47,782 nt of DNA from NCBI GenBank assembly GCA_964605545.1, contig CAZSCX010000002.1:1-47782 (forward strand), written 5' to 3'. Origin of the DNA: an uncultured Gammaproteobacteria bacterium. GTDB taxonomy: Bacteria > Patescibacteriota > Microgenomatia > UBA12405. Below the pieces are notes generated by a model, which saw nothing but the letters and a program-made list of their open reading frames with translations, was not told where the DNA came from and searched no databases. Within the stretch, counting starts at the first letter, position 1. Each line of letters begins with the position of its first letter. Position numbers and translations under genes: made by a program. Of the stretch, positions 4,755-47,782 are shown piece after piece.

Positions 4755-5495
4755 CTATTCGGCGATTTTGGCTTTCACAACAAGACGTTTAATATAAGTT
4801 CCTGGAGGATAGCAAGTGACAAGGGTAAGAAAACGGCCATCATAACGTTGATCAAGAATGGAAAAATCTGTCGCTTTGACCTCAAAAATATCTTCGATAG
4901 AATAGGTATAATTTACGTTATCGTATTTTATAAAAATTTGATCATTGGCTTTTAATTTGAAAAGAGTTGAAAAAATAGTCAAATAAGATTTCGGGTTAAA
5001 AAACTGGGGTAAAACAGAATGACCAAAAATAACAGTGTTTCCCTTTTGGCCGGGCATGGCGGTCTGAGGATAATGAATTATACTTTTTTTGAGATCCATA
5101 CTGCCAATTTGGACTTCGGCATTGTTGATACCAAGTTTTGGAATAGAAATATAATATTTTTGGCCATTTTCCGGAGTCAATTCTTTTGATTGACTGACAT
5201 CTTGATTCTTATCTTGGATAAACCAACTGGAAAGTTGAGTATAATCGGCAGTGATACCGCCAATATTACTGTCTTGATTGTAAAAATTTGAAGATACCGG
5301 ACTTACTATTTTTTTGAAACGACTAGAATAAAAAAACTGAAAACCTAAAATTGGATAAAGAACTGAAAGGATGGCAAAAATACCCAATGAAAATAAAATA
5401 TACGAAAGATATTTTTTATTTAATTTCTCAAGTTTTGGAACCTTAAGAGATTTTTTTTGATGAGAAGTTTTCTTCTTGACGTAAACGTAGCCCAT
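4755..5495 (-). CDS. Sortase-family transpeptidase (membrane anchored)
   Basis: N-terminal TM segment; catalytic His in VIFGHS, the TLVTC active-site motif (FLTLVTCYP), and a downstream Arg (KRLVV). Confidence 0.85.
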   Translation of the reverse strand: MGYVYVKKKTSHQKKSLKVPKLEKLNKKYLSYILFSLGIFAILSVLYPILGFQFFYSSRFKKIVSPVSSNFYNQDSNIGGITADYTQLSSWFIQDKNQDVSQSKELTPENGQKYYISIPKLGINNAEVQIGSMDLKKSIIHYPQTAMPGQKGNTVIFGHSVLPQFFNPKSYLTIFSTLFKLKANDQIFIKYDNVNYTYSIEDIFEVKATDFSILDQRYDGRFLTLVTCYPPGTYIKRLVVKAKIAE

Positions 5496-21377: not shown

Positions 21378-22187
21378 TTAGACTGAAGAAACGGAACTGG
21401 GTTGATTGGTACCGAACAAATTACCGGATTTTTCGACACTTTCGATTGGTTTTTGGTTGTCAAAAGCATTTTGGGTAGGAGTAACCGGGGTTTCGATTTG
21501 AGTAGCCCGCAAACAAGCGGCGCCGGCTTCGAAGGTTTCCGGTGAAACGTTAACAGAGAAGGATTGAGTGGCTACACGAAGACCAATCAATAAGTCCTTG
21601 GCAGAATCAAAATGGAAAGGTAATTCCAACATAGGTATCAAAAAGGACATAATTTCGGAATAAGGAGCATCGGGATCAATAATTGAGGTTTGAGCCCAAG
21701 TTTTTTCGATAGGAATTGGAGAAATAGAAACCCAATTGCCTCGATTGACAATTTCGGCATCTTTACCCAATTTAGTTTCATCACCAAAAAGAATATTGAG
21801 ATCAGCGAGACTGGATTGATTGTTTATGACAATTTGGTCACGTTCGATTTTGAGAGAATTTGGTTTAACTTTAACAACAAGATTTAAACGACCATTGTCT
21901 TCGTTATAAGACACTGTTTCGATATTTTCTTGCGGATAGTTGAGGGAAATAGTCAAATCGTTAGCATTATAGGTATCTGTCAAAAGTTCTAAACCGCTTA
22001 ATTTTGAGTAGTTGGTATCTGTTTTTTGAGGGCAAAAAACAGAGACACTTCTACCTGATTCTTTGACAGCAACGGCCAAGGCCAAAGCTGAACTGATGCC
22101 GTCTAAACTTAGTTCCGGCACAGCAATAAAGACCGATTTAGCGGTTGAAAGTAGACCTTTTAGTGTTGCGATATTATAGGTTTTCAT
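21378..22187 (-). CDS. DHH/NrnA-like fold protein with degenerate catalytic motifs
   Basis: The N-terminus KSVFIAVPELSLDGISSALALAVAVKESGRSVSVFC aligns with the NrnA motif I region (HxxPDGDxxGSxLAL) but lacks the metal-binding Asp/His residues. No DHH triad is visible. The gene sits just after infB, where rbfA/nrnA/truB usually lie. Confidence 0.5.
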   Translation of the reverse strand: MKTYNIATLKGLLSTAKSVFIAVPELSLDGISSALALAVAVKESGRSVSVFCPQKTDTNYSKLSGLELLTDTYNANDLTISLNYPQENIETVSYNEDNGRLNLVVKVKPNSLKIERDQIVINNQSSLADLNILFGDETKLGKDAEIVNRGNWVSISPIPIEKTWAQTSIIDPDAPYSEIMSFLIPMLELPFHFDSAKDLLIGLRVATQSFSVNVSPETFEAGAACLRATQIETPVTPTQNAFDNQKPIESVEKSGNLFGTNQPSSVSSV

Positions 22188-29820: not shown

Positions 29821-30762
29821 TTATTTATTTAATTTACTTATCACTTTTGATAAACGGGAAACATGATCGGGAATACTACCAGGGACAATACTGACTCCCG
29901 ATGATTCAAAGTCTTCTTTGTTCTTTCTAATTAGTGCAAAAGAAGCTGTTTCGGTGGGATTAAGTTTTCTAATGGGGTAATAAAGATTGTCGGAATGAAC
30001 TATCTCTGAGTTTAAACTTATTTCATTTAAATAAACATTTTGTTTGCCTGAATCAAATTTTTTAGCTACGGATTCAATCGCATCAGAACCTCCTCTAACA
30101 TAGCAATCATGTTCACCATCATTAATAATTCCTAATTTATATCTGGCCATGTGATTGGTAGGATTAAGTTTTTCATTTGTTTTGGTAAGCCAGGTAATAA
30201 CGGCTTCTGGACTGTCTTGAACTTCGGCATAATTTAAAAAGTTATCAATTAAACGAAATTCGCCATTGGTAGTGTCATAAACACCTAATTTTATTTTCCC
30301 GTCGATTATATAATTCGCATCATCTTTTTTTATATCAAGGAGGGCAATGGTGTCGGGAAGAAGTAAGGTGCCATTTTCGAAAGGCTTTAATTGTTCTTCA
30401 CCTACCCTTCTATATACTTCATTTGATAGAGCTCCTAAAGCATAAAGATCAAGGCCAACATTGCCGGTATCAATAATTTGTTTCTCCTCAATGATCTTTT
30501 TTTGAATTTCTATTAATTCATTGGTTTCATTCTTTATCCTTTTTGCATCTTCAGTTTCAAATTTTCTTCTTGCTTCTTCGTCCATACCGACAGATTTATA
30601 AGCTTGGCCTAAACCAACGAGGGTAGCTAAGGTAGCAATACTGGCAGCAATTTTTTGAGCTGGCGTCCATTTATGTTGTTCTTTTGATCCCGATTTTTGC
30701 TGTTCCTCGGAAACCCCCATGTCTTTTGAGCTGGGTGATATATCTGGAATTTGTAGTGGCAT
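29821..30762 (-). CDS. Hypothetical 313-aa protein (weak N-terminal hydrophobic anchor, coiled coil, globular C-domain)
   Basis: Long ORF tightly packed between dut (5-nt gap) and rmuC. It has the hydrophobic stretch IAASIATLATLVGLG followed by a charged helix. I recognise no family. Confidence 0.75.
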   Translation of the reverse strand: MPLQIPDISPSSKDMGVSEEQQKSGSKEQHKWTPAQKIAASIATLATLVGLGQAYKSVGMDEEARRKFETEDAKRIKNETNELIEIQKKIIEEKQIIDTGNVGLDLYALGALSNEVYRRVGEEQLKPFENGTLLLPDTIALLDIKKDDANYIIDGKIKLGVYDTTNGEFRLIDNFLNYAEVQDSPEAVITWLTKTNEKLNPTNHMARYKLGIINDGEHDCYVRGGSDAIESVAKKFDSGKQNVYLNEISLNSEIVHSDNLYYPIRKLNPTETASFALIRKNKEDFESSGVSIVPGSIPDHVSRLSKVISKLNK

Positions 30763-30767
30763 ATGAA

Positions 30768-31211
30768 TTATTTTACCCCAGTGGAACCCATTCCGCCACG
30801 GTTGGGATGGTGTTTAAAATTTTTTAATTCTTTAATATTAAAAATGTTATTTTTAATAAGCATAATTTGGCAGATGCGAGTGGCTTTTTCGATATGAACC
30901 GGATGGTCGGTGTAGTTGTAAGCAACAAAATGATATTCATCATTGTCGCCACAATAATCACGGTCGTAGACTCCAACACCATTTGCGGCCATTAAGCCTA
31001 ATTTGGAAGTTGAACTACGAGCAAATTGTAGAATAGCGTAACCTGCCGGTATTTCTATGGCTACATTGAGAGGAATAGGAAATATACTATGAGGGGGAAT
31101 ATCGACATCGATACGAGTATACATATCGGCGGCGACAGCACCACTGGTTTTAAAAACCGGTAAAGGGATGGTTTTGTCAAACCTTTTGAAATTGATGGAT
31201 ATGGTTTTCAT
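30768..31211 (-). CDS. dut: dUTP diphosphatase (trimeric dUTPase)
   Basis: PVFKTSGAVAADMY, GVGVYDRDYCG (motif 3), and the C-terminal RGGMGSTG (motif 5). Confidence 0.9.
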   Translation of the reverse strand: MKTISINFKRFDKTIPLPVFKTSGAVAADMYTRIDVDIPPHSIFPIPLNVAIEIPAGYAILQFARSSTSKLGLMAANGVGVYDRDYCGDNDEYHFVAYNYTDHPVHIEKATRICQIMLIKNNIFNIKELKNFKHHPNRGGMGSTGVK

Positions 31212-34143
31212 CTTTACACTTTTCCCCTATTTGATTAAATTCTAAATTAAGAATTCTATTATAAACATCTTTGATCAAAATTTTTAAATCAGATAAATCT
31301 TTTTCTTTTATTTCAATATTTTTCCTTTTGGTTTTTTTGATGTAATCGAGAACCCCTGAATTTATCTTATATTTAAATTGAGGACAATTGTCGGCTAAAA
31401 TTTTATAAAACAATATTTGTCTTTGATAATCATCATCGTTGTCACGTTTATCGGGATTGCCGGTTTTAAAATCAACAGCAATTGCGTGAAGATCTTTTTG
31501 AATTTCAATTTTGTCGATATTGCCGGTAATAGGAATATTGTCCAAATGAACATTAAAAGGTTTAAAACTAAATTCAGAAAGATTTTCGTTTTTAAAGGTG
31601 TCGAGGTATTTATCATAATAAAGAGATAGTTCGTCAAGGCCATTGGCCAATAAATTTTGAAATTCTTTTTTAATTAAATTTTCTTGTTTTAAATGTTTGG
31701 TAAAGGATTCTAAAAATTTCTTTTTGGATAAATTATTTTTTAGCAAATCAGAGAGAGCGGCGTGAACAGCGGTACCGTAAGAGGCATATTTATTTTTGGT
31801 TTGAGGAATTTTTAAAATTGTTTTGTAAAAAAAACAGAGAGGACATTTGAGATAAGAATTTAAATTGGTGGGGCTTAAAACATAATTTTCTTTTAAATAA
31901 GTTTTAAGATATTTTTCAAAATCGTTATCAGAAATTATTTGGGGATATTTTTGAAAATTAAAAAGAAGAGCCTTTCTGCCAAGCTCTGAAGAGGAAATAA
32001 TATTATTGATTAATTCCGGTTTAATTTCTGATAAAAATTGTGAAGGGGTAGTGGCACCATAAGATAAAAATAAATCTTTTTTGGCTCGGGTTAGAGCAAC
32101 ATAAAAAAGACGGCGGTCTTCTTCACTTAAATCATTTAAATCCTTATTGATTTCATATTTTAAAATACCCAAGGGTAGACGTAAATTATTATGATCACGA
32201 CTTTCACCCCAGCGAGCAGAAATAGTATTGATTACAAAAACATATTCGAATTCCAAACCCTTGGCCTTGTGAATTGTCATTAAATTGATTGAGTCGTTTA
32301 AGGTAATATCGGATTCGATTTCCAGGGGAATATTATTTTCGGAAAAGAGATCGAGGCGATAAATAAAATCTTTTAAATTAATATTTTTTTCGTAAGATAA
32401 TTTTTTGAGATGGTCATAAAAGGCATTAAATTTTTGAAGTAAATCAAAATTTTTACTTTTAATTATTTGTTTTAAAATTTTAAATTTGCGAATAATTTTA
32501 TTAAAAGCTTTATTTAAATTATAATTTTCTAAATATATTTTGGCTTTAGCAATTCTTTTTTCAAATTTTTTTATTTTTGAACAAGTTTTTCCGTATTTAT
32601 AGAAATCGTATAATTCCCGTTCTTTTAAGCCGATAAAATCAAAAGCGAGTATGGGAAAAAGTAATTCACCAGATGGGTTGTTAATATATTTTAAAAGAGT
32701 GATGAGTTGTTTAATTTTGATATCCGATAAAATATTATTGCCATTACTTAGGGTATATTTTATATTTAATTTTTCCAATAAAGGCAGCAAATCCAAAACA
32801 TCAGTATTGTTTCTGTAAATAACAGCGATTTCTTTTGGACTAACTTTTTGTTTAATTAACTCATGTATTTTTTGGGCGACAAAATAGTTTTCTTCCAGTT
32901 TACTTGATGAAGAAAATATGGTTATTGGTTTACTTGGATCATCAATGGCTGATTTTAGTGATTTGTCGATATCGGTTAAAAAGCCGGTGATACGATTTTT
33001 GTTTTTTTCGATGACACATTGAGAGCTGTCGAGAATGGTTTGGTGAGAGCGATAATTATTGTTGAGAGTAATTACTTTGGGTTTATATTTTTGGACAAAT
33101 TCATAAATATTTTCGAGATTGGCACCTTGAAATCTAAAAATTGATTGATCGTCGTCGCCGACAACAAAAAGATTTGGGATGTCGTCATTTTTGGTTAAAA
33201 GATTTAAAATTTCATTTTGAGAGGAATTGGCATCCTGATATTCGTCAACTAAAATATATTGGTATTTCTCCTGATAATCAAAAAGTAAATCAGCATCTTC
33301 GTTGAAAGAACGAATGGCAAAAAGAATTTGATCTTCGTAATCGTAACGATTAATTTCACTTAATATTTTTTGATATTTTTGATAGATTTTTTGAAGCTCA
33401 AATTGTTTGGGGATATTTTTTTCCAAATCCAAATAAAATTTTAATAAAGCATTCTTAAAATTAATTAAGGGATTTTTGGCCTTTCCAACATCAAAGACTC
33501 CTTGATCAAGTTGTATTTTTTTAAATTTTAGATAATTTAAAATTTCACTGTCGGCAAATTTTAAAATTTCGTTAAAAATCTCCAATGTTTCTTTGGGATG
33601 GGTTTTCAATTTTAAAAATAAATTGGTGGATTTTTTTAAAAATTCTTTTTGAATATCAATTAATTCAAATAATTTTTCCGGACTAATGTTTTCTCTTTTT
33701 AGAGTTTTAATATTATTGATTAAATCGTTTTGATAAAAATAGTTGTCACCCCAAGGTTTGAGAGGAGAATCATGAGGTAACTCATCGATAAGAGAGATAA
33801 TGATTTCCAGTCTTTCCAAATCGTCTAAGAGTTCAATATTGATTGCATTATTTTTGATAACTTCGGAGCAAAAAGAATGAAAGGTGTGAATACGGATTTT
33901 GTAGCCATCGGGACCGATGTATTTGACGAGACGGTCACGCATGTTTTTGACGGCATTGTTGGTAAAAGATAGACAGAGAATACTTTCGGGAGAAGTATCG
34001 GTTTTTGTCAAAATATGGGCAATCCTAGCGGCAATTGTTTGAGTTTTGCCGGTACCGGCACCGGCGAGTACCAAAACCGGACCATCAATAGCCTCCACAG
34101 CCTGAAGCTGTTTTGGATTGAGATTTTTTAGATATTCCGCCAT
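31177..34143 (-). CDS. UvrD/PcrA-type SF1 helicase fused to a C-terminal RecB/Cas4-like PD-(D/E)XK nuclease domain (988 aa)
   Basis: N-terminus LNPKQLQAVEAIDGPVLVLAGAGTGKT, DEYQD, and the later helicase motif VALTRAK. The C-terminal 250 aa carry SYLKCPLCFFYK, GNIDKIE...VDFKTG and YQRQILFYKIL (nuclease motifs I-III plus QxxxY). Confidence 0.88.
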   Translation of the reverse strand: MAEYLKNLNPKQLQAVEAIDGPVLVLAGAGTGKTQTIAARIAHILTKTDTSPESILCLSFTNNAVKNMRDRLVKYIGPDGYKIRIHTFHSFCSEVIKNNAINIELLDDLERLEIIISLIDELPHDSPLKPWGDNYFYQNDLINNIKTLKRENISPEKLFELIDIQKEFLKKSTNLFLKLKTHPKETLEIFNEILKFADSEILNYLKFKKIQLDQGVFDVGKAKNPLINFKNALLKFYLDLEKNIPKQFELQKIYQKYQKILSEINRYDYEDQILFAIRSFNEDADLLFDYQEKYQYILVDEYQDANSSQNEILNLLTKNDDIPNLFVVGDDDQSIFRFQGANLENIYEFVQKYKPKVITLNNNYRSHQTILDSSQCVIEKNKNRITGFLTDIDKSLKSAIDDPSKPITIFSSSSKLEENYFVAQKIHELIKQKVSPKEIAVIYRNNTDVLDLLPLLEKLNIKYTLSNGNNILSDIKIKQLITLLKYINNPSGELLFPILAFDFIGLKERELYDFYKYGKTCSKIKKFEKRIAKAKIYLENYNLNKAFNKIIRKFKILKQIIKSKNFDLLQKFNAFYDHLKKLSYEKNINLKDFIYRLDLFSENNIPLEIESDITLNDSINLMTIHKAKGLEFEYVFVINTISARWGESRDHNNLRLPLGILKYEINKDLNDLSEEDRRLFYVALTRAKKDLFLSYGATTPSQFLSEIKPELINNIISSSELGRKALLFNFQKYPQIISDNDFEKYLKTYLKENYVLSPTNLNSYLKCPLCFFYKTILKIPQTKNKYASYGTAVHAALSDLLKNNLSKKKFLESFTKHLKQENLIKKEFQNLLANGLDELSLYYDKYLDTFKNENLSEFSFKPFNVHLDNIPITGNIDKIEIQKDLHAIAVDFKTGNPDKRDNDDDYQRQILFYKILADNCPQFKYKINSGVLDYIKKTKRKNIEIKEKDLSDLKILIKDVYNRILNLEFNQIGEKCKDENHIHQFQKV

Positions 34144-37736: not shown

Positions 37737-37980
37737 TTTTATTGATGACGGCTTTGGTAACAAAATAACCATCTTTTATTGGCGGGGTTTCAATAACTTT
37801 ATCTTCCCGATAAACATTTTTTAGACTATTAACCTGATAAAGCGGTTCGACATTGTTGGTGTTTATTTTTTCTAAAACTTCAAAGTGAGAAGTGATACTT
37901 TCCAAATCTTTTAGGAGATTGTTATTTTCTTTTATTGGTAGATTGGCTAATTTTGATAATTTAGCAATGTCTAGACTCAT
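37729..37980 (-). CDS. gatC: Glutamyl-tRNA(Gln) amidotransferase subunit C
   Basis: 83 aa, IAKLSKLANLPIKEN...VEPLYQV, positioned immediately upstream of gatA. Confidence 0.9.
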   Translation of the reverse strand: MSLDIAKLSKLANLPIKENNNLLKDLESITSHFEVLEKINTNNVEPLYQVNSLKNVYREDKVIETPPIKDGYFVTKAVINKNG

Positions 37981-38912
37981 AGATGTAGTTTAGCTTTAAA
38001 GCGTAAAATTTTCCAGCGTATAAAATCGGTAAAAATAAATAATTTATACATAATTGGATTGATAATATAATCATAGGTACCAACAAATTTTACCAGTTCA
38101 CCGCCATAACCCATTTTAAAACGATGGAATCCAAATCCAAGATCTCCTTCTTTGGCATCGGGAGAAAGGGCACCCCACATATCAAATAATTTACATTTTT
38201 CTTTCTTTCCCCATTTAATTACTTCCCACATGAGTAAATTTGGAGCCATAACTTGACGGTTATTGTCTGATGAAGCTCCATAGGGATAATAAATTTTATC
38301 TTTATATTTAAAAATCATAAAAGCCGATAAGACTTGATTTTGATATTTTGCCAAAAAAATATGAGGGATATCTGAACCTTTTAGGGAATCCCAAAGATTT
38401 TGATGATATTGTTGGTTGTGAATAAAAAATCCCTGTCTTTTGCCTGTTTCTGCTAAAAGCTTGAGATAGGCGGTAAAACCTGTTTGATTAGTTTGTTCTT
38501 CAATTTTGACTCCGTGGCGGGCGGCAACTTTAATATTGTAGCGAGTTTTGGGATGCATATTTTCCAATAATTTTTCTTCACTAGGAGTTAAATCAAGAAA
38601 GATTGAATGAGGATAAAAATTAACCTTGGGGGAAGAAACTAGATTTTTGAAATTATAGACTTCCGTATTTTTTGCCAAAACATTTGGTTCGATTTTTACA
38701 AAAATAACTTTTTCTTTTTGACAAATTGGTCTAATTTCATCAAGCATTGACTGAGTAATTTGAGGACCACGAAGAATAGTGCCTATTTTGTGCGGTATTT
38801 TTGGAAGATGGTGAAGAACTAAAATATAATCTTTAAAAGAAAAAACGAGATGGCCTTGTTTTTTTTGAAACTCTGCCCACTCTTTGGAATGAAGTGGATG
38901 ATTAATGCTCAT
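37977..38912 (-). CDS. FemAB/FemX-family aminoacyl-tRNA-dependent peptidoglycan interpeptide-bridge transferase
   Basis: SKEWAEFQKKQGH, TRYNIKVAARHGV, and IFLAKYQNQVLSAFMIFKYKDKIYYPYGASS...APNLLMWEVIKWGKKEKCKLFDMWG fit the FemX/MurM-type fold. Confidence 0.82.
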   Translation of the reverse strand: MSINHPLHSKEWAEFQKKQGHLVFSFKDYILVLHHLPKIPHKIGTILRGPQITQSMLDEIRPICQKEKVIFVKIEPNVLAKNTEVYNFKNLVSSPKVNFYPHSIFLDLTPSEEKLLENMHPKTRYNIKVAARHGVKIEEQTNQTGFTAYLKLLAETGKRQGFFIHNQQYHQNLWDSLKGSDIPHIFLAKYQNQVLSAFMIFKYKDKIYYPYGASSDNNRQVMAPNLLMWEVIKWGKKEKCKLFDMWGALSPDAKEGDLGFGFHRFKMGYGGELVKFVGTYDYIINPIMYKLFIFTDFIRWKILRFKAKLHL

Positions 38913-38915
38913 ACA

Positions 38916-40802
38916 TTAGTATATATCAGGATCGTAGATAAAATCGTCTTCGGTTTCATTTTTCCTTTTGGAAGAAGTTTTACCTTGACTTAATTCTTGT
39001 AAATGAGAAGGGATATCAAGCAAAAAGCGACTTGGTTCATTAAGAGAACTTTTGCCGATATAAAGACGTTTTGAGGCATAGGTAATTTCCAAAAAATCCT
39101 TAGCTCGAGTGACACCAACATAACAAAGACGACGTTCTTCTTCTAATTGAGCCTCGTCGACAAGACAACGAGAATGAGGTAAAAGTCCTTCTTCGAAACC
39201 GACCAAAAAAACAACTTCAAATTCCAATCCCTTTGAACCATGAAGAGTCATGAGACGCACTCCTTCCCTGCTTTCTTTCTTTTTATTTTTTTCCTGAGCT
39301 GAGTATTCTTGTTGAACAAGGGCAATGTTTTCCAGAAAATCATTTATTTTTGGAAAAGAAGTGGCAACCGATTTTAATTCTTTAATATTTTCGATTCGTT
39401 TTTGATCATCATCATCTTTTGGATCAAAACGATTGAGATAAGTAGAAGAATTGATCAAAGATTCTAAAATTTGAACTGTATCTAAATTTTTATATTTAAA
39501 ATCTTTAATAAATTCAAAAAAATGACGGGATTTGATTTTGCCAAGTGATTTAATAATTCTGGTTTCGGATATTTTGTCATTTTGATTTACTAAATAACGC
39601 ATTAGGGAAAGAATATCTTTGACTTCTGCTCTTTCATAAAAACGAATACCCCCCAAAAGAACATAGGGTAAGCCAAATTTCAAAAAGGCTTCCTCTAAGA
39701 CACGAGATTGTGCATTCATCCGATAAAGAACGGCAATATTTTTGTAAGGAATATGGACTATATTGTGGTAAAAATTAATACGATCGGCAATATATTCGGC
39801 TTCATCCATTTCATTTGAAGCTTCATAGATTCTGATTAAATCATTAGATTTTTTGGCAGTAAATAGTTTTAGAACGGGATGGCTATTATTCTTTGAAATA
39901 ATATTATTAGCGGCATCAAGAATAATTTGAGTCGAACGATAGTTTCTTTCCAGATTGATTATTTTGGCATCTTTAAAGTCGGTGGTAAAACTAATAAGAT
40001 TTTTGTAATCGGCACCACGCCAACCATAAATTGCTTGAGAAGCATCGCCGACAGCTGTTATTTGACGATACTTTTTGGCTAATAGCTTGGTTAAGAGATA
40101 TTGGATTTGATTGGTGTCTTGATATTCGTCGACTAAGATAAATTTATATTTATTTTGATATTTTTCTAAGATTGATGGATTTTTTATAAAAAGATCAACG
40201 GTTTTAAAAAGTAAATCATTGAAATCTAGAGCTTTGAATTCTTCTAATCTTTTTTGGTATTGACGATAAATTTTTACGGCATATTCCGCCCAAAAACCAC
40301 TGGCTTCTTCTAATGCTTGATGGGGATTTAAATAATTATTTTTGCAATTTTCGATAAAATAGGCAATTGAGGATGGTTTAAATTCTTTGGGATTGAGATC
40401 CAGATCAATTAAAACTCTTTTAATTAAATTTTCTTGATCATCAGAATCATAGATAATAAAATTATTATTAATGCCGATCTTATCACCATCAATCCTTAAT
40501 ACCCGACAACAAAAAGAATGAAAGGTGCCGGCAAATAAATTATTGGAATTGTCTGCCGACAAGCAGTTTTTGGAAAGAAGTTTTGCCATTCTTTCTTTCA
40601 TTTCATTGGCGGCTTTGTTGGTAAAGGTTAATAGAAGAATTTCCTGAGACTTGGCAATTTTTTGATAAATAAAGTAAGCTGCCCGATGAGTTAAAACTCG
40701 AGTCTTACCCGATCCGGCACCGGCTAATAATAACAAGGGAGAACCTTGAAAAGTAACGGCTTGGCGTTGTTCTGGATTTAAATCTTTTAAGATATCGGAC
40801 AC
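38916..40802 (-). CDS. pcrA: UvrD/PcrA/Rep-family SF1 DNA helicase (628 aa, GTG start)
   Basis: LNPEQRQAVTFQGSPLLLLAGAGSGKTRVLTHR, LVDEYQDTN, TLHGSKGLEFEVVF, YVGVTRAK. Confidence 0.9.
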   Translation of the reverse strand: MSDILKDLNPEQRQAVTFQGSPLLLLAGAGSGKTRVLTHRAAYFIYQKIAKSQEILLLTFTNKAANEMKERMAKLLSKNCLSADNSNNLFAGTFHSFCCRVLRIDGDKIGINNNFIIYDSDDQENLIKRVLIDLDLNPKEFKPSSIAYFIENCKNNYLNPHQALEEASGFWAEYAVKIYRQYQKRLEEFKALDFNDLLFKTVDLFIKNPSILEKYQNKYKFILVDEYQDTNQIQYLLTKLLAKKYRQITAVGDASQAIYGWRGADYKNLISFTTDFKDAKIINLERNYRSTQIILDAANNIISKNNSHPVLKLFTAKKSNDLIRIYEASNEMDEAEYIADRINFYHNIVHIPYKNIAVLYRMNAQSRVLEEAFLKFGLPYVLLGGIRFYERAEVKDILSLMRYLVNQNDKISETRIIKSLGKIKSRHFFEFIKDFKYKNLDTVQILESLINSSTYLNRFDPKDDDDQKRIENIKELKSVATSFPKINDFLENIALVQQEYSAQEKNKKKESREGVRLMTLHGSKGLEFEVVFLVGFEEGLLPHSRCLVDEAQLEEERRLCYVGVTRAKDFLEITYASKRLYIGKSSLNEPSRFLLDIPSHLQELSQGKTSSKRKNETEDDFIYDPDIY

Positions 40803-40819
40803 CTGTCTATTTAACCATT

Positions 40820-42901
40820 TTATTTGATGACTTTATAGATTTTAGTTTTTCCGGTTTCAAAGATAGTCGAAAATCCTAGATCAATAAAGTTCTTTTCATT
40901 AAGAGCTGGGTATTTTTTGCGTTCATTGACTCCAAGAAAAACATAATCGACATTATATTTTTGAAGCAAACGACGAACTTCGTTGCGATCCTTATTGGTA
41001 TAAATTTTTTCGACATCAGCAGCACGGGCACCAGGCTGATCATAACCACCTCGCCAAAGCCATTCATGAACCAACCAACCTTGAACTGTGGGAAGACCGG
41101 TAGTAGCAGAAATTTGATTATAAAGAGTATAGCTATCTCCAACAGCTTCCAGCATTATTGGTTGACCGGTAATATTTTTATTTATCCAATCGATCGCTTC
41201 AAGATTATCCGAAAATTGATCTTTAAGAAAATTCATACCATAGAGACCCTTATATTCTTTTAGACCATAATAAGAACGAATGGCAAAGAATGGATATATT
41301 AAATGGGATACAAAAATTAGTAAAAATAATATTTTATAAATTAAATATTGACGATGATTTTTGATCAATGTGGAAAGACGAACCAAAACATAACCAGTTA
41401 TTAGGGAATATATGATAAAAGCTTGGTAAACTAATTTGAACATAGTATTGGCTCGACGATGAGAAAAGATATAAATATCTTTTAAATATACACATTCGGG
41501 AAGTACAACCAGGAGAGTGGCGGTCAAAAATAACCCCATGACAAAAAGATCGGTATACAAAAATGATTTCTTGCGATTTTTGAGTTGGTAAGAAAAGAGA
41601 GAAAAGATGTAAGGAATGATAATTAGCCAAAAACCACCATAGAGAATGAAGAGTTGATAAAAAGGTGTTTGAGCATCAGATAATTTTATGCCTTGGGCCA
41701 TAGGAATAAAATTGAGAGAAAAAGGGAGAGTAAAAATATACCAGGCAATAATTACACCTAGACCATTAACGATAGTTTTCCAAAGACTAATGTTGATCAA
41801 AAAATAAGTAACGGCAAACAATAAACCATAAATTGCAAAATCCCAAGCATTGGTCATAAAGGCCAAAGAAAGAGTCAAACCGGAATAAATTATCAACCGC
41901 CAATTAATGAAATATGAAGTGGGGGCGTTTAAAACCAAAAGCATAGCGATAAAAAAGAGAATAATGGGAATATCGTTCATGTGGCCATGGAGATCGGCGA
42001 CAACAAAACTATAAATGGGAAACTCATGAATTGTTTTGTCGTTAACATCAGGATCAAAACCAATAAATCTAGTAGCATCGGGATACCAATATGAGTTAGC
42101 AGCCCTTTGAAAAGCATTTTTGCTGAGAACTAGTTGACCATTATTTTGCTTGATATTGAGTTTAGATATTTTGTAAATAGCGTGAAGATTACCACCAAAA
42201 GTTAAGAATAGAGCAGAAAAAAGACCGCCGATAAGGATAAATTTAAATTGGGTTTTTTTGGTAAAAAAATGATGGATAATATTGCCCACTAAGGAAAAAC
42301 CGGAAACAAAAGTGAGAGCACAAACAGTAGCGATAGAAAGATTATAAGTAATAGCTGATATAAGTCCGGAAAATTTGGTTAATAGGCTAAAATATAGATG
42401 ACCGAAATAATAATAATTAATTGATTCACCAGCAAACCACATATCAGCTGGAGGCATATATTTAGCTCTAAGCATGGAATTAATAAAACCCCAATCCATG
42501 AATTTCTCTAAGCCTTCAATCATGGGATTGTAACCACGAACAAAAGACCAAAAAATCAAGATAATAAAAAATAATATTTCTTCAAAAATTAAAATTTTAT
42601 AATTATTTTTTAGTAATTTTATAAAATCAGCAAATTTTTGTTTTTTGAAAAGATAAAAATAATTTAAAAAAGAAATTAATAATAGAATCAAAAAAATCGA
42701 TGGAGTAGAAAAAGTGACAAGTTTAAAAATACCTAAAACAAAAATACAATAAGTGGTAAAAGTAATACCAATGATTTTGGAAAAAATATAACCTTTGTCA
42801 AAAAATTTTTTGAATAAATTAAAAGTAAAAGGAAGGACTGAAGTACCAAAAAGCAAAATAATAAACCACCAAAATAATATGTATTTTAAGTCAGCGAACA
42901 T
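40820..42901 (-). CDS. DUF2298 / YYY-motif polytopic membrane protein (GT-C-like putative glycosyltransferase)
   Basis: Many TM segments and the diagnostic AGESINYYYFGH motif. I prefer ATG 42901 (MFADLKY, 11-nt overlap with the PAP2 gene) over the TTG at 42946 in the track. Confidence 0.78.
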   Translation of the reverse strand: MFADLKYILFWWFIILLFGTSVLPFTFNLFKKFFDKGYIFSKIIGITFTTYCIFVLGIFKLVTFSTPSIFLILLLISFLNYFYLFKKQKFADFIKLLKNNYKILIFEEILFFIILIFWSFVRGYNPMIEGLEKFMDWGFINSMLRAKYMPPADMWFAGESINYYYFGHLYFSLLTKFSGLISAITYNLSIATVCALTFVSGFSLVGNIIHHFFTKKTQFKFILIGGLFSALFLTFGGNLHAIYKISKLNIKQNNGQLVLSKNAFQRAANSYWYPDATRFIGFDPDVNDKTIHEFPIYSFVVADLHGHMNDIPIILFFIAMLLVLNAPTSYFINWRLIIYSGLTLSLAFMTNAWDFAIYGLLFAVTYFLINISLWKTIVNGLGVIIAWYIFTLPFSLNFIPMAQGIKLSDAQTPFYQLFILYGGFWLIIIPYIFSLFSYQLKNRKKSFLYTDLFVMGLFLTATLLVVLPECVYLKDIYIFSHRRANTMFKLVYQAFIIYSLITGYVLVRLSTLIKNHRQYLIYKILFLLIFVSHLIYPFFAIRSYYGLKEYKGLYGMNFLKDQFSDNLEAIDWINKNITGQPIMLEAVGDSYTLYNQISATTGLPTVQGWLVHEWLWRGGYDQPGARAADVEKIYTNKDRNEVRRLLQKYNVDYVFLGVNERKKYPALNEKNFIDLGFSTIFETGKTKIYKVIK

Positions 42902-43460
42902 AAAAAATAAAATTAAATATTTTTTCGATAAAATTATTGATAACAAAAGGAAGATGTATAGGAAGAGAAAATAAATACATGGCTATACCAATAATGGCTC
43001 CACCAAGGACATCAATTGGATAATGCAGGCCGACAAAAACTCTAAATGAAAGAAGAGGCAAGACAATTAGCCAATAGAGAATGGGATTGAAAACTTGATA
43101 TTGCAGAATAAAAAAGAAAAAGAAAACAGCTTTTATGGTATGACCCGAAGGAAAAGAGCCGTTGGTATACCAATGTTTAATTAATCCAGAAGGAATAGAA
43201 TTTTTGTTTTTATGAACGGGGCGATGCCAAATTTTTTTGGTTTTAAGATATTTTTCGATTATTTCCCCTATTAGTGTGGCAAAAAATAATTGACAAAAGA
43301 TATTAATATCTTTCTTGATTAAAAGATAAGAAATATAAAAAAGAAAAATCCAAATAATATAATTAGTGGCAACTAAAACAAAACGGCCAATTGGAAATTG
43401 GCAAAAATGTTTAAAGTAGTCTTTTTTTGGTTGCCAAAAAAACAATTCTTTGTTGGTCAT
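42891..43460 (-). CDS. PAP2-superfamily lipid phosphate phosphatase
   Basis: Three PAP2 motifs: KTKKIWHRP (Kx6RP), PSGH, and RVFVGLHYPIDV (Rx5Hx3D). The protein is polytopic. Confidence 0.85.
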   Translation of the reverse strand: MTNKELFFWQPKKDYFKHFCQFPIGRFVLVATNYIIWIFLFYISYLLIKKDINIFCQLFFATLIGEIIEKYLKTKKIWHRPVHKNKNSIPSGLIKHWYTNGSFPSGHTIKAVFFFFFILQYQVFNPILYWLIVLPLLSFRVFVGLHYPIDVLGGAIIGIAMYLFSLPIHLPFVINNFIEKIFNFIFYVR

Positions 43461-44509
43461 TAGAAAAATATTTTAATAATTTTTAATATTCCCTGACTCC
43501 AGGGAACTCGATGAGAAACACCACTTTGATTTTGAAAATTGTCGAGATTGGCAAGATACCATTTATAATTTCTAATCAAAGCTTCGGCATTGGAATATTT
43601 TGGTTGGAAATTAAGTTTTTCTTCGGCTTTTTTTATAGAAACAAAAGAATCTTTACCGGCAGTTTCGTAAACCCATTTATAAAGAGGTGAAAGATGGAAA
43701 AATTCTAGAATCTTTAGAGCCGCAATAACAGGAGCGGCAGGAAAACCAATAATTTTTTTGCCAAAACCGGCATAATCAAGAACTTTTTGATAATCTTCTC
43801 TCATAGTGCTAAAACGTTTAGCACCAATATTAAAGGTATCGTTTACCTTTTTAGAATTAAGAGTTAAACAGGAATGAATGACAACACATAAATCTTGGAC
43901 ATCCAATAGTTGATAGGGATTGTTGCCATTGCCTATCACAGGAAAATTTTTGCCGGATTTAGCCCAATCATAGAGGAGAGAAAAAACACCTAGTCTCTCG
44001 GGACCAATAAATGATTTGGGTCTTAGTACCGGAATGATCATCCCCTTTTTACGATATTCTTGACAATATTGTTCAGAGATAATTTTGGCTTCGCCATAAG
44101 GCCCAACACCATGTAATTTATCAGTTTCGTAAAGAGGATGATGATCGGGAATACCGTAAACTGCAGTAGATGAAATATAAACGAAACGTTTAATTTTTTT
44201 CTCTTTGGCTTGTTTTAATAAATCTTTAGTGGCATAAGCATTGGTGGACATAATATCCTCTTTGGAATAAAGAGGTAAGGCAGCGGCGGCATGGACGATA
44301 TAATCGACACCTTGATAGGATTTTTCGATAGTTTTAGGATGACGAATATCACCTAAAATAAAATCGATTTTTCTTAATTCGGGATAATTGAATGGAGCAA
44401 TATCAAGAACCCTAACCGAATAGTTGTTTTTGAGAAGGTGACGAACAAGATTGATACCCAGAAAACCTGAACCGCCGGTAACTAAAACTAAGGGTTTTTT
44501 GTTAGTCAT
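43460..44509 (-). CDS. NAD-dependent sugar epimerase/dehydratase/reductase (extended SDR)
   Basis: VLVTGGSGFLGINL Rossmann motif and the YGEAK catalytic YxxxK. Confidence 0.9.
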   Translation of the reverse strand: MTNKKPLVLVTGGSGFLGINLVRHLLKNNYSVRVLDIAPFNYPELRKIDFILGDIRHPKTIEKSYQGVDYIVHAAAALPLYSKEDIMSTNAYATKDLLKQAKEKKIKRFVYISSTAVYGIPDHHPLYETDKLHGVGPYGEAKIISEQYCQEYRKKGMIIPVLRPKSFIGPERLGVFSLLYDWAKSGKNFPVIGNGNNPYQLLDVQDLCVVIHSCLTLNSKKVNDTFNIGAKRFSTMREDYQKVLDYAGFGKKIIGFPAAPVIAALKILEFFHLSPLYKWVYETAGKDSFVSIKKAEEKLNFQPKYSNAEALIRNYKWYLANLDNFQNQSGVSHRVPWSQGILKIIKIFF

Positions 44510-44517
44510 ATGGGTAT

Positions 44518-44523
44518 ATTATA
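44518..44523 (-). promoter_or_regulatory. Putative -10 box TATAAT, 8 nt upstream of the SDR ATG, overlapping the upstream stop codon
   Basis: The minus strand reads aaagaTATAATatacccatATG. Confidence 0.35.
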
Positions 44524-46033
44524 TCTTTTTATAAATTAATACTTGAGGATGATCATAAACCGTAAATGATTCATCGGCGTTCTGATCATTAATAGTAACA
44601 CCAAAAATTGCAGGAAAACGCGTAAATTCTTTGACTTTTTGATAATTTAACTTGCCTTCAAATAGATCTTGATAATACTTGGCACTAATAGGATATTTGT
44701 CCTTTAGATCGGTAATAGGTTTCCAAAGGCGATTGCTGGCAATGACCAGATAGTCTCCCCGATTTAATTGGTCATTAATTTTTAACCATTTTTGAGGGTT
44801 ATGATCAGACTCATACATAGCCAATTCTTCTGTTTTGTGGCCAAAATCACTACCAAGCGGAAGGCCATCGTCCCAATGTTCTCGAAGAATTGTTGAATTT
44901 GGAGGAAGGTTGTTTTTGAGCCAAAGAGAAGCATCGAGGCGTGTATTAGGATAAAAATAAATACTTAGGAAAGCCAGGAGTATAAAAAAATGAGGGATAA
45001 AAAACAGAAGAAAGAGATTCTTGTTTTTTTTCAGATAAAGGGCAGCTGTGAGACAAATAAAAGGATAAAGGGGCAACATGTAGCGCATGAATTTAACAGC
45101 AAAACATCCGGTAATGGCAAAATATATGAAAACAAAAATAAACATAAAAATAAAACCCTTTATTTTTATGTTTCTGAAAAATTTAGTAAAAAATAAAAGA
45201 GAAGCAAGACTAAGAAAGGGGCCAGCTCCCCATAAAAAAATATTTTTTAAAGGATATAGATAAGCAGTAGTTTTAACATACTGGAGAGTGTAAGGAAAAA
45301 CATAGGCATTTTTGGTCATGGCTTGCTGCTCCATAATCTGACGATAAAAAGTTTTAAAATCTAAAAAAGCATAAGGCATGCCGATAAAAAGAAAAAAAAG
45401 AGAAAAGAGACCAAAAAGAAACAAGTGTTTGATTTTGTTTGGTTTAAGAAAAATTATTAAAATTATGGGAAATAAAATCGGAAAGGCGCTGACCTTGGTA
45501 GCAAAAGCAAGACCGGTAAAAATACTGCTGAAGACAAGATATTTTGAGGTAGTATAAAAATAAAAAAGAAGAGCAAAATAGAGAGATAAATAAATAAAAC
45601 AATTTAATATGGTATCGACGGCGTAAAAATGAGAAAGTTGAACGGCGAAAATACAAGTAGCATAAAAAATTGCTGATATTAGTGATGTTTTTTCCGATTT
45701 TGTAAATAATTTGCAAATTAGATAAATAGTATAAATAGTTATGACGTCAAAAATTGAGGAGATAAAACGGCCAATTAAATTTATATAATCATAGGAAGAT
45801 GAAGGCGGAAAAATGTGAGCCAAATTATTTGATACAATTTTTAATAAGTAAATAGGAAAGGAACCATAGGCAAAAAATTTAGGGTTGAGATTGTTGGGAT
45901 AAGTAATTTTTTCGGTAACCATAATAATCATTCTTTCATCGGGATGAAGGTGATAACCTTGATCCCAATTAAGACCGAAAGTTCTAAACAAAAGACCAAT
46001 AACTAAAATGAAATAGATTAAATATTTCTTCAT
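44519..46033 (-). CDS. GT-C-fold polytopic glycosyltransferase (ArnT/PMT, GT39-like), paralog 1
   Basis: About 12 TM segments and a first-loop acidic motif, NWDQGYHLHPDERM. The soluble C-terminal domain ends FTVYDHPQVLIY. It is a clear paralog of the next gene. Confidence 0.72.
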   Translation of the reverse strand: MKKYLIYFILVIGLLFRTFGLNWDQGYHLHPDERMIIMVTEKITYPNNLNPKFFAYGSFPIYLLKIVSNNLAHIFPPSSSYDYINLIGRFISSIFDVITIYTIYLICKLFTKSEKTSLISAIFYATCIFAVQLSHFYAVDTILNCFIYLSLYFALLFYFYTTSKYLVFSSIFTGLAFATKVSAFPILFPIILIIFLKPNKIKHLFLFGLFSLFFLFIGMPYAFLDFKTFYRQIMEQQAMTKNAYVFPYTLQYVKTTAYLYPLKNIFLWGAGPFLSLASLLFFTKFFRNIKIKGFIFMFIFVFIYFAITGCFAVKFMRYMLPLYPFICLTAALYLKKNKNLFLLFFIPHFFILLAFLSIYFYPNTRLDASLWLKNNLPPNSTILREHWDDGLPLGSDFGHKTEELAMYESDHNPQKWLKINDQLNRGDYLVIASNRLWKPITDLKDKYPISAKYYQDLFEGKLNYQKVKEFTRFPAIFGVTINDQNADESFTVYDHPQVLIYKKI

Positions 46034-47553
46034 TTGCTTCTTTGATAAAGTCTAATTTTGGGATGATCAAAAACTGTCCAGGTTTCTTCGGCATTTTCCG
46101 GATCTAACAAAAAATAATTTTTAATTTGGAAAGTTTTTAGAGATTTAAAACCAGATTTTCCGGAAAAAAGATCTTTATAATATTGACTGCTAAAAGGAAA
46201 AGAAATTCCTTTTTGGTTTTTGAAAACACGACGTGATGGAATTAATACATAATCGGAATTTTTTTGATATCTTTGTAGTTCTGCCTGATTATTGGAAGAA
46301 TTTTCTAGACTATAAAAATCAAAATTGATAGTTTTAAAATGATTATTGGTATTAATGGGAATGTTTATGACATTGCCACCTTCAGAAAGAATTGTCTTGC
46401 CGGAAACAATGTTTTGATCAATCCATTTTGAAGTCTGAAGACGAATATCGGGCTTTAAATAAAGATTGATAAAAAGTAAACCAGGCGTAAGACAAAGAAT
46501 GGTAAATAGATAAAATAATTTTTCCGATTTAATTTTACTGATAAATAATACAGCGAAAAATGGAAAAATAAAAAATATGGGAGCCATAAAACGAACCCAT
46601 TTAGTATAAAGCTGACCAAAATAAATAAAATAAATTAAACAAGGAATAAGGAGAATAAAATATTTTTGATTAAAAAGTTTTTTCTTGATAAAAAGAAAAA
46701 ACCCAAAAATAGATAAAATAAAAGTAGATAACCCAGACACATAGGGAAATATTTTATGAAACTGAAAAATATATGGAAGACTGTGAAGAAATTGATTGGT
46801 ATAGAAAACCTTGATTTTGCCGGTGGCGACACCGGTTTCATAGTTCATTGAGGAAAGAAATTCATGAAAATTGATCAAATAATAAGGGGTGGAAATAAGG
46901 GTAATTGAACCAGTAATTAGTAAATAGTAAACAGTAGTTAGTAAATTAAATTTTAAGGCAAAAATAATAGGTAAGATAAAAAAGACAGCAGTAATTTTAC
47001 TACCGATGCCAATTCCAGTAACCAAAGCAGACCAAAAAATATATTTTAATTTTATTTTTTCGTGCAACATTAACGCCATATAGATATTGAAAACAAGAAC
47101 AAAAGATAGAATTGATTCCGTGGTACCAAAATGGGCAATTTGAATTAAACCTGGATTTAGGATAATAAAGAGAAATAAAAGCAGTTGATATTTTGGTTTT
47201 TTAAAAAATATTTTTGAAATTAGATAAATAAAATAAGCAGTAAAACAGGAAAATATTGCTGATAAAATCCTTAACCCAAAAACCGCTTGAATAAAACTAA
47301 GATTGATACTCAAAGACGGATTAAACCAAAAATTAAAAAATTTAAAAATAAAATAAACAATATAAAGTGGAAATTGACCATAAGCATAAAAACCAGGATC
47401 AAGATTTTGGGGTGATAATTGAGAAATGGCTCGAGCCATATTACTTTCATCGGGATGAAAGAAATAATTGTTTCCCCAATTTATTTTTAGAAAACGAGTA
47501 AAACACAAGAGTAGCACCAATAAGATAAAAAAATTTTTTGGTTTAGAGAACAT
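46030..47553 (-). CDS. GT-C-fold polytopic glycosyltransferase (ArnT/PMT, GT39-like), paralog 2
   Basis: NWGNNYFFHPDESNM, NLDPGFYAYGQFPLY (paralog 1 has NLNPKFFAYGSFPIY), and a C-terminus WTVFDHPKIRLY. It has an ATGA overlap with paralog 1. Confidence 0.72.
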   Translation of the reverse strand: MFSKPKNFFILLVLLLCFTRFLKINWGNNYFFHPDESNMARAISQLSPQNLDPGFYAYGQFPLYIVYFIFKFFNFWFNPSLSINLSFIQAVFGLRILSAIFSCFTAYFIYLISKIFFKKPKYQLLLFLFIILNPGLIQIAHFGTTESILSFVLVFNIYMALMLHEKIKLKYIFWSALVTGIGIGSKITAVFFILPIIFALKFNLLTTVYYLLITGSITLISTPYYLINFHEFLSSMNYETGVATGKIKVFYTNQFLHSLPYIFQFHKIFPYVSGLSTFILSIFGFFLFIKKKLFNQKYFILLIPCLIYFIYFGQLYTKWVRFMAPIFFIFPFFAVLFISKIKSEKLFYLFTILCLTPGLLFINLYLKPDIRLQTSKWIDQNIVSGKTILSEGGNVINIPINTNNHFKTINFDFYSLENSSNNQAELQRYQKNSDYVLIPSRRVFKNQKGISFPFSSQYYKDLFSGKSGFKSLKTFQIKNYFLLDPENAEETWTVFDHPKIRLYQRSK

Positions 47554-47782
47554 AAACTAAGGTGATCATTAGAATTCCCCAAGAGGCAACGGCAATGATG
47601 AGGGGAATATCGGTAGACACAACTCTTTCTGGACGTTCACCTTCTTGCATTTCAAAAATGATTTGACCATAACGCATAAGACCAAAGATAACCGGAAAAA
47701 GAGTAATCATATACCATTTACGATCAAGTAATAAGGGAAAATTGGCCAGTAAATATTTATGAATACTGCCATCAAAAGAAAT
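47543..47782 (-). CDS. UbiA-superfamily prenyltransferase C-terminus, decaprenyl-phosphate phosphoribosyltransferase-like (partial, last 79 codons)
   Basis: My translation is ISFDGSIHKYLLANFPLLLDRKWYMITLFPVIFGLMRYGQIIFEMQEGERPERVVSTDIPLIIAVASWGILMITLVYVL*. The RY-x(n)-GE-x-PE-x(n)-D-x-L...W tail resembles the C-terminus of DPPR synthases. It overlaps the next gene by 11 nt. Confidence 0.65.
   Translation of the reverse strand: MSFDGSIHKYLLANFPLLLDRKWYMITLFPVIFGLMRYGQIIFEMQEGERPERVVSTDIPLIIAVASWGILMITLVYVL

Follow-up and report, generated by a model that had tools for sequence, protein, structure and literature searches.

A putative lipid-linked pentofuranose glycosylation operon in Patescibacteria

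We analyzed an operon on the minus strand at positions 40820-47782 of a stretch of patescibacterial DNA (contig CAZSCX010000002.1). The whole stretch of 47,782 nt is here referred to as the window, and coordinates are those of the window. The operon encodes a UbiA-type protein, membrane glycosyltransferases of the GT-C type, a short-chain dehydrogenase/reductase (SDR), a PAP2 phosphatase and a DUF2298 protein. Enzymes of these classes are known from the mycobacterial pathway to decaprenyl-phosphoarabinose (DPA), which comprises the decaprenyl-phosphate phosphoribosyltransferase (DPPRS) Rv3806c, the PAP2 phosphatase Rv3807c, DprE1/DprE2 and the GT-C enzymes Emb/Aft. A three-component extracytoplasmic addition of pentofuranose was described for Citrobacter youngae O1/O2 by Kelly, Duong, Nothof, Lowary and Whitfield (PNAS 2024; PMC11127046). 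There, a UbiA-type polyprenyl-phosphate 5-phosphoribosyltransferase (PPPRS) with a HAD phosphatase domain makes undecaprenyl-phosphate-ribofuranose (Ribf) from phosphoribosyl pyrophosphate (PRPP), a MATE protein is predicted to act as flippase and a GT-C enzyme (GT136) adds the pentose in the periplasm (PMC11127046). ORF13, a single GalE-like SDR which is present in serotype O2 and not in O1, switches Ribf to xylofuranose (Xylf) (PMC11127046). In the survey of the same authors arabinofuranose (Araf) glycans were always accompanied by DprE1/DprE2 homologs and Xylf glycans by an ORF13 homolog (PMC11127046). Patescibacteria and DUF2298 are mentioned neither in the main text nor in the supplement of that study, and PAP2 is not mentioned in the supplement (PMC11127046). 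Literature searches on DUF2298, on arabinofuranose, polyprenyl or phosphoribosyltransferase enzymes of the candidate phyla radiation (CPR) and on GT136 follow-ups returned nothing on this system in CPR.

Based on our analysis the operon probably specifies a system of the C. youngae kind for glycosylation with lipid-linked pentofuranose, related to mycobacterial DPA synthesis. We favor this reading because of the DPPRS-type UbiA, the conserved core of the cluster, the in-place swap of the phosphatase, the GT-C fold of the DUF2298 model and the linkage of the SDR to DPPRS-like genes. The original prediction, in which a donor pathway for polyprenyl-phosphate-pentose feeds GT-C enzymes, is supported in this respect by the DPPRS-type UbiA, the PAP2 phosphatase and the GT-Cs. 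The UbiA C-terminus, two GT-Cs, the SDR, PAP2 and DUF2298 were all found where that prediction had placed them. It had counted seven genes; six were listed, and a UvrD helicase gene in the same direction makes up the seventh. The six genes overlap or abut each other, with spacings of -11, -4, +9, -1 and -11 nt and +17 nt to UvrD, and this spacing is operon-like.

Only the last 79 residues of the UbiA-type protein lie inside the window. This fragment had no Pfam match, and its only NCBIfam matches were weak ones to decaprenyl-phosphate phosphoribosyltransferase models (E = 2e-4). The full protein of 301 aa was taken from 99% identical contigs (P0002/P0003). It scored 204.9 bits with NF008978 (decaprenyl-phosphate phosphoribosyltransferase, cutoff 207), its close relatives reached 213-223 bits, and the models of quinone, heme, chlorophyll and archaeal-lipid prenyltransferases gave approximately 50 bits or less. 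The best match in the PDB was the Mycobacterium tuberculosis DPPRS 8j8j (E = 1.9e-35), followed by other UbiA enzymes at 4e-8. In the loop motif N-D-x-x-D-x-x-x-D the residues N56, D57, D60 and D64 were invariant among 15 homologs; the Citrobacter enzyme was shown to depend on this motif (Kelly et al. 2024, PMC11127046). Furthermore, UbiA-type genes of four actinobacterial records, three of them annotated as decaprenyl-phosphate phosphoribosyltransferase, matched the protein with 33-34.5% identity across 92-98% of its length. Judged by these similarities it is a DPPRS/PPPRS homolog. With the full protein recovered, NCBIfam scores and the PDB search thus placed it with the DPPR synthases and not with the quinone or heme prenyltransferases.

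The homologs of this protein carry names of the Shapirobacteria/Woesebacteria group of Patescibacteria. One genome per species was scanned, which resulted in 80 loci with UbiA identities of 61-74%. Conservation was counted in the 57 loci (Shapirobacteria-type) holding both UbiA and DUF2298, with the gene order determined by local phmmer. The conserved order was MurJ, PilN-like, PilO-like, a small ORF, a Thr/Pro-rich surface protein, UbiA, the two GT-Cs (here named GTC1 and GTC2), a variable slot, PAP2, DUF2298, UvrD and FemX. The core from UbiA to DUF2298, including GTC1, GTC2, the slot and PAP2, was complete in 55 of the 57 loci, and therefore we do not regard the arrangement as a chance one. 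Both GT-Cs were found in the same number of loci (55/57), while UbiA, PAP2 and DUF2298 alone, with both GT-C paralogs gone, were left in 2/57. Many of the GenBank records of metagenome-assembled genomes (MAGs) bearing the locus (L008, L010, L015, L019, L020 and some 30 others) go under the title 'uncultured Gammaproteobacteria bacterium', and a single one under 'Candidatus Methanoperedens sp.', which looks like taxonomic mislabelling or mis-binning of contigs.

The PAP2 protein carries all three motifs of its family (KTKKIWHRP, PSGH and SFRx5Hx3D). Its gene was kept in 56 of the 57 loci, and where it is absent a HAD-like gene stands at its position (L065:17722-18267 and, in a sister lineage, L093:9344-9928, both on the minus strand). 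The replacing protein is small, with a DLDGV motif and sub-threshold HAD matches. The HAD-like gene was also present in L041 and L045, and elsewhere it stands beside PAP2. In other lineages UbiA is paired with a HAD-IB protein on a Lactococcus plasmid, a PHP protein in haloarchaea and an EEP protein in Streptomyces. That non-orthologous phosphatases replace one another is the strongest in silico evidence that the UbiA enzyme needs a phosphatase partner, as a ribose-5-phosphate intermediate predicts. The assignment of PAP2 to the pathway in the original prediction is in agreement with these data. A phosphatase as in the Kelly system is thus encoded in the operon, and its substrate is a predicted one.

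GTC1 was above the Pfam cutoffs of PMT_2 (34.2 bits, cutoff 26.1) and PMT (23.0 bits). GTC1 and GTC2 are paralogous (hhalign probability 100%, 26% identity). Among 41 orthologs each, the PDE of the HPDE motif following the first transmembrane helix (TM1) was invariant in GTC1 (P34, D35, E36), as were P31, D32, E33 and R34 in GTC2. The profile of the GTC2 orthologs matched the solved structures of yeast Pmt1 (6p25, E = 2e-4), TMEM260 (0.08) and ArnT (0.8). Both proteins combine a PMT_2 match above the gathering score with an Asp-Glu pair in the first extracytoplasmic loop, as known for GT39/PMT_2 enzymes, and are predicted lipid-linked-sugar transferases.

The DUF2298 protein was clearly assigned to its family (PF10060, 308 bits, cutoff 27.8; TIGR03662, 487.8 bits, cutoff 300). 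The YYY motif INYYYFGH was conserved, and D35 of the first loop was conserved to at least 90%. Neither the single sequence nor the ortholog profile found a relative among solved structures, and therefore a structure model was needed to count three GT-C proteins. An AF2 model built from 43 homologs reached a pLDDT of 82.7 and a pTM of 0.88. The top 11 Foldseek matches in the PDB were all GT-C enzymes (DPY19, STT3, AglB, AftA and PglB; E = 1.6e-5 to 3e-3), with the best TM-score for AftA (0.44/0.50). The first non-GT-C matches were CLC-type chloride transporters at a probability below 0.1. Additionally, the C-terminal domain was similar to the globular domains of AglB, and hhalign aligned it weakly with GTC2 (probability 38%). 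The DUF2298 protein thus has, according to its model, a GT-C fold. Together with the PMT_2 scores of GTC1 and GTC2 this bears out the three GT-C-type proteins proposed originally.

The SDR is of the extended type with an intact Ser-Tyr-Lys triad (TGGSGFLG, the triad serine in SST, YGEAK) and a conserved C-terminal tail, GVSHRVPWSQGILK. A tblastn search of 72,556 plasmid and megaplasmid records resulted in 15 full-length matches with identities of 33-48.5% (E = 1e-55 to 1e-103), after which the identity suddenly dropped to 30% or less. At least 8 of the 15 matches were located 0.1-5.5 kb from a gene matched by the UbiA protein and DPPRS-like. The carriers of these linked genes were the archaea Haloterrigena, two Natronococcus and Halostagnicola, the actinomycetes Streptomyces SAT1 and Nonomuraea, and the rhizobia Rhizobium sp. 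CCGE531 and Sinorhizobium fredii NGR234. The haloarchaeal loci contained a PHP-phosphoesterase, UbiA, the SDR and two PMT-like GT-Cs, with an additional DMT transporter in Haloterrigena. The plasmid of Rhizobium CCGE531 is among the candidate systems listed by Kelly et al. (PMC11127046). Based on its sequence, we assign the SDR of the window to a subfamily of extended SDRs whose genes lie next to DPPRS-like genes in haloarchaea, actinomycetes and rhizobia. It carries the motifs TGxxGxxG and YxxxK, and its subfamily is linked to DPPRS-like genes including those of the listed Rhizobium locus.

In S. fredii NGR234 the region 299625-307690 of pNGR234a (L100), adjoining nodS/nodU, represents a pentofuranose-type locus. 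It contains in series an SDR, an SMR transporter pair, a GMC oxidoreductase, a 658-aa membrane protein, a second SDR and a HAD-UbiA fusion.

Within the lineage, orthologs of the window SDR (488-521 bits) were present in only 10 of the 57 loci and scattered over the UbiA tree. Since its distribution is patchy, the SDR is an accessory module and not a core step. The slot between GTC2 and PAP2 held, in other loci, GT4 genes (30 loci), S-adenosylmethionine (SAM) and FkbM methyltransferases, extra PMT_2-type GT-Cs, DUF362 and the HAD-like gene. Such a hypervariable pattern is typical of surface-glycan loci. The expectation that the cluster is conserved as a unit was therefore correct for the core (55/57) and not for a fixed set of genes, given the variable slot and the SDR in 10/57. 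A different SDR occupied the same slot in four loci (L054:15043-16056, L071:6481-7515, L030 and L034). It is of the canonical type acting on nucleoside diphosphate (NDP) sugars, dTDP-glucose-dehydratase/GalE-like, with 178-182 bits for the dTDP-glucose 4,6-dehydratase model. A GT4 gene on the minus strand was present in all four of these loci.

In the pathway we propose, the UbiA-type enzyme would, by homology, move ribose-5-phosphate from PRPP to polyprenyl phosphate, and PAP2 would strip the 5'-phosphate to give polyprenyl-phosphate-Ribf. In this genome and a minority of its relatives the extended SDR may then epimerise the lipid-linked ribose to another pentofuranose, which is the weakest of the steps. 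By analogy with ORF13 the product would be Xylf, and Araf is also possible. After flipping, the two PMT_2-like GT-Cs and the DUF2298 GT-C would transfer the pentose to extracytoplasmic acceptors.

The original prediction had likened the SDR to DprE2 and the product to arabinose. In such a DPA-like pathway the SDR would provide the DprE2-like reductive half or the whole of the 2'-epimerisation, and the GT-Cs would be arabinofuranosyltransferases. The classes of DPPRS, PAP2 and GT-C do match the mycobacterial locus. Furthermore, AftA, the enzyme with the best TM-score to the DUF2298 model, is an arabinofuranosyltransferase, and epimerisation of C2 by one NAD-bound extended SDR is conceivable in principle. 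However, full-length DprE1 and DprE2 probes of M. tuberculosis, checked against the PDB (1058 bits and 546 bits (21gq_C), respectively), matched none of the ORFs of the window or of 86 loci (together 1.4 Mb) at E<=10. Neither enzyme was found within 10 kb of UbiA in the 80 relatives, and phmmer gave no match between the window SDR and DprE2 even at E<=10. The same probes detected both proteins (DprE1 279 bits, DprE2 98 bits) on a plasmid of Chondrinema (Bacteroidota), where they adjoin GT39 genes and a DPPRS-like gene; this plasmid served as a positive control. The earlier statement that the window holds no DprE1-like FAD oxidase was borne out by the validated probe. The SDR is of the extended type and absent from 47 of the 57 relatives, and every published case pairs Araf with DprE1/E2 homologs and a single SDR with Xylf (PMC11127046). 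Thus, the arabinose analogy is not supported, and we consider a DPA-like pathway unlikely.

One of the two PMT_2-like paralogs might be the flippase for polyprenyl-phosphate-pentose, as proposed for the GT-C-looking archaeal Agl23. A classical flippase is missing from the cluster, and purified Agl23 translocates lipid-linked glycans in vitro (PMC11182771). The NCBIfam model TIGR03663 is named 'flippase activity-associated protein Agl23', and the GT39-like protein beside the haloarchaeal UbiA-SDR pair matches it weakly (45.8 bits). However, neither GTC1 nor GTC2 matched any NCBIfam family, TIGR03663 included, at E<=1. Both paralogs have the invariant PDE (D-E) expected of catalytic GT-Cs, and the two loci without either paralog keep UbiA, PAP2 and DUF2298. 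A flippase role of one paralog is therefore of low probability.

A further explanation is that the SDR acts as an ordinary epimerase or dehydratase of nucleotide sugars and supplies another glycosyltransferase of the locus, and that plain polyprenyl-phosphate-Ribf is the lipid donor in all genomes. The Pfam domains Epimerase (residues 8-229) and GDP_Man_Dehyd (9-309 of 349) span the whole or nearly the whole protein, its closest solved structures are NDP-sugar enzymes, and the same slot holds a canonical SDR in the four loci mentioned above. However, the window SDR stayed far under every NCBIfam cutoff. Its best model was HpnA (104 bits, N-terminal half only) and the NDP-sugar models gave 75-80 bits, compared with 149-182 bits for the canonical SDR of the slot. 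Its close relatives adjoin DPPRS-like genes, with the drop in identity from at least 33% to 30% or less, and no Leloir glycosyltransferase is present in the slot of the window. The grouping with canonical NDP-sugar enzymes which would have spoken against the original prediction was not seen, the subfamily being physically linked to DPPRS-like genes, and we regard this explanation as very unlikely.

That the genes are neighbours merely by conserved order in a streamlined genome, with UbiA an unrelated prenyltransferase, is extremely improbable: UvrD, FemX, MurJ and the PilN/O-like genes are equally syntenic and some distant DUF2298 genes lack a donor-pathway neighbour, but modules of UbiA, phosphatase, SDR and GT-C recur in unrelated lineages, the phosphatase was displaced in place, and the prenyltransferase models for quinones, heme and lipids scored UbiA at no more than about 50 bits.

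Several points weigh against the pentofuranose system proposed here. The functions of all enzymes of the operon are predicted from homology, and the likeness of the SDR to ORF13 would be one of motifs and gene context. The UbiA score lies slightly below the NF008978 cutoff. For GTC1 no relative was found among solved structures, either with the single sequence or with the ortholog profile; the AF2 model of GTC2 from a two-sequence alignment had a pLDDT of 44.7 and was not used, and the TM-scores of the DUF2298 model to GT-C structures were modest (0.30-0.44). The negative result for DprE1/DprE2 covers the window and the loci and not the remainder of the genome. The lineage has kept the gene order throughout this region, UvrD and FemX included, and hence synteny inside Shapirobacteria alone proves little. 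No MATE, SMR or GtrA flippase is encoded between UbiA and UvrD, where the gaps between genes are at most 17 nt. The sole nearby gene of the MOP family, five genes upstream of UbiA, is a bona fide MurJ (275.5 bits, cutoff 235.6). As a flippase for the pentose lipid it was set aside, since its score exceeds the equivalog cutoff for MurJ and the L093 locus lacks it.

MurJ and the genes for PilN-like and PilO-like proteins (weak Pfam matches; L003:2976-4144 and L093:586-1787) head the conserved block, with MurJ missing in L093. A surface protein is encoded just upstream of UbiA, beyond the end of the window (L003:4340-5668), with orthologs of 410-470 aa in 66 loci. It has an N-terminal transmembrane anchor, a weak FN3 match and a Thr/Pro-rich stalk (on average 59% S/T/P over 60 aa). 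Its conserved C-terminus consists of a sortase-signal-like motif (for example SSG[VI]PxTG), a hydrophobic segment and usually a basic tail; a strict xPxTG was found in 34 of the 66 orthologs. This protein is a plausible candidate acceptor for O-glycosylation by the GT-Cs. Because the whole region is syntenic, it stays a lead.

The DUF2298 family is large (6452 clusters at 50% identity), and its distant members were found in other surroundings. In Deltaproteobacteria UDP-galactopyranose mutase (UGM) and a small GT2 accompanied DUF2298, and in Acidobacteria and one other MAG a UGM-related flavoenzyme and GT2 did so. In three distant loci (Acidobacteria, Deltaproteobacteria and one unassigned MAG) a GTC2-like domain was fused to the DUF2298 domain. 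One distant member was located within a clostridial polysaccharide locus, and some were without donor-pathway neighbours. These neighbourhoods and fusions support DUF2298 as a lipid-sugar-dependent GT-C working with PMT_2-like proteins. A preference for furanose donors is hinted at by the neighbours and is conjecture.

The giant PMT_2-DUF2298 fusions measure 1328-1598 aa (L088:745-4731, L089:5233-10008 and L091:1106-5902). They adjoin a small GT2 and UGM or a related flavoenzyme, which suggests lipid-linked galactofuranose (Galf) systems. An FAD-dependent oxidoreductase (NF005560/PRK07233) was encoded immediately upstream of UbiA in the sister CPR lineage (L093:5523-6752) and immediately upstream of DUF2298 in a 3.2-Mb genome (L087:8640-10004), with 334 and 431 bits, respectively (cutoff 252). 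It could be an alternative sugar-modifying enzyme.

Tentatively, DUF2298/YYY may represent a GT-C family specialised for polyprenyl-phosphate-furanose donors, acting with or fused to a PMT_2-like GT-C, with donors that differ by lineage. In Patescibacteria the donor may be PRPP-derived Ribf or its epimers, made by UbiA and the phosphatase. In Acidobacteria, Deltaproteobacteria and others it may be Galf, made by UGM or a related flavoenzyme and the small GT2. The glycan of Shapirobacteria would then be conserved and hypervariably decorated, possibly on a sortase-anchored mucin-like protein.

The coordinates of the operon are compiled in Table 1. The DUF2298 gene starts in the databases with the ATG at 42901; the longest ORF opens at the TTG at 42946 (40820-42946).

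Table 1. Genes of the putative pentofuranose operon in the window
Gene product	Position	Strand	Remark
UbiA-type polyprenyl-phosphate 5-phosphoribosyltransferase (PPPRS/DPPRS homolog), C-terminal 79 codons	47543-47782	-	cut by window end
GT-C 1 (GTC1), PMT_2-like, 507 aa	46030-47553	-	Pfam PMT_2 34.2 bits
GT-C 2 (GTC2), PMT_2-like, 504 aa	44519-46033	-	Pfam PMT_2 44.8 bits
Extended SDR, 349 aa, predicted epimerase of lipid-linked pentofuranose	43460-44509	-	Pfam Epimerase 1e-38; TGGSGFLG, YGEAK
PAP2 phosphatase, 189 aa, predicted 5'-phosphate removal from polyprenyl-P-ribose-5-P	42891-43460	-	PF01569 50.2 bits
DUF2298 / Chlor_Arch_YYY, 693 aa, GT-C fold (by model) and C-terminal globular domain	40820-42901	-	PF10060, TIGR03662

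The remainder of the window carries housekeeping genes. Among them the sortase (4755-5495), MltG/YceG (3261-4172) and FemX (37977-38912) noted originally were all recovered. A PRPP synthetase, a DprE1/FAD oxidase or a flippase was not found in this remainder. Two UvrD-family helicases are present on the minus strand. The gene at 31177-34143 has a C-terminal PD-(D/E)XK nuclease and is AddA-like, and the PcrA/UvrD-like gene at 38916-40802 is located directly downstream of the operon. Three sizeable ORFs, likewise on the minus strand, were without a Pfam match (5495-7606, 703 aa; 21378-22187, 269 aa; 29821-30762, 313 aa). The 703-aa ORF abuts the sortase gene; it was searched for a sorting signal and none was found.

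Patescibacteria live attached to host cells, and to our knowledge almost nothing is known about their surface glycans. The conservation of the operon across a class-level lineage, together with a hypervariable slot, suggests a pentofuranose glycan on the cell surface that is exposed to diversifying pressure. The kind of system was already described in 2024; the present results would extend the concept of pentofuranose addition to a new phylum and to archaeal megaplasmids. Furthermore, testable functions follow for the orphan family DUF2298 as a GT-C enzyme, for the extended-SDR subfamily travelling with DPPRS in Bacteria and Archaea, and for PAP2, HAD, PHP and EEP as interchangeable phosphatase partners of the UbiA enzyme.

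Compared with described and predicted systems, the closest relatives of the SDR are encoded in the UbiA-SDR-GT39 loci on megaplasmids of Haloterrigena, Natronococcus and Halostagnicola (45-48.5% identity, E ~1e-100, residues 8-346). As in the window, the neighbours of the SDR are a UbiA gene (there annotated as DPPRS), a phosphoesterase gene and two genes for PMT-like GT-Cs. Unlike the window, these loci have a PHP-domain phosphatase and a DMT transporter and no DUF2298, and they are known from their genes alone.

In the group IV pilin system of Pseudomonas aeruginosa a GT-C enzyme (TfpW) uses a lipid-linked pentofuranose, D-Araf, to O-glycosylate Ser/Thr of a surface protein. The counterparts here are the PilN/PilO-like genes and the Thr/Pro-rich surface protein just upstream of UbiA. 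The Pseudomonas system has DPPRS, DprE1 and DprE2 homologs and makes Araf, whereas protein glycosylation in Patescibacteria is conjecture.

With the mycobacterial DPA pathway the operon shares the combination of DPPRS, a separate PAP2-family phosphatase and several GT-Cs. The DPPRS structure 8j8j is the nearest solved relative of UbiA, and AftA is nearest to DUF2298 by TM-score. The differences are the lack of DprE1/DprE2 in the window and the loci, an SDR of another class, and GT-Cs which are not detectably Emb/Aft by sequence.

With C. youngae the operon shares, by homology, a DPPRS-homologous PPPRS of the UbiA type using PRPP, followed by 5'-dephosphorylation to polyprenyl-phosphate-Ribf. 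Both have an optional extended SDR (TGXXGXXG, YXXXK) varying among close relatives, which in C. youngae is GalE-like and sets the identity of the pentose. The patchiness of the SDR on the UbiA tree mirrors the distribution of orf13 in C. youngae, where O2 (Xylf) has the gene and O1 (Ribf) lacks it. Additionally, the GT-C of C. youngae has an acidic residue after TM1; here GTC1 and GTC2 have an invariant D-E pair, and the DUF2298 model is GT-C-like with a conserved D35. The phosphatase is a fused HAD domain in C. youngae and a separate PAP2 protein here, a MATE flippase is encoded in the former locus and none in the latter, and a single GT136 GT-C stands against two PMT_2-like proteins and one DUF2298 protein. 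Furthermore, the lipopolysaccharide O-antigen of a Gram-negative bacterium is modified there, whereas the present operon belongs to a wall-bearing Patescibacterium. The window fits the scheme of Kelly et al. better than the mycobacterial one, as its UbiA enzyme is predicted to depend on PRPP, a phosphatase and GT-Cs are encoded beside it and the extended SDR is optional.

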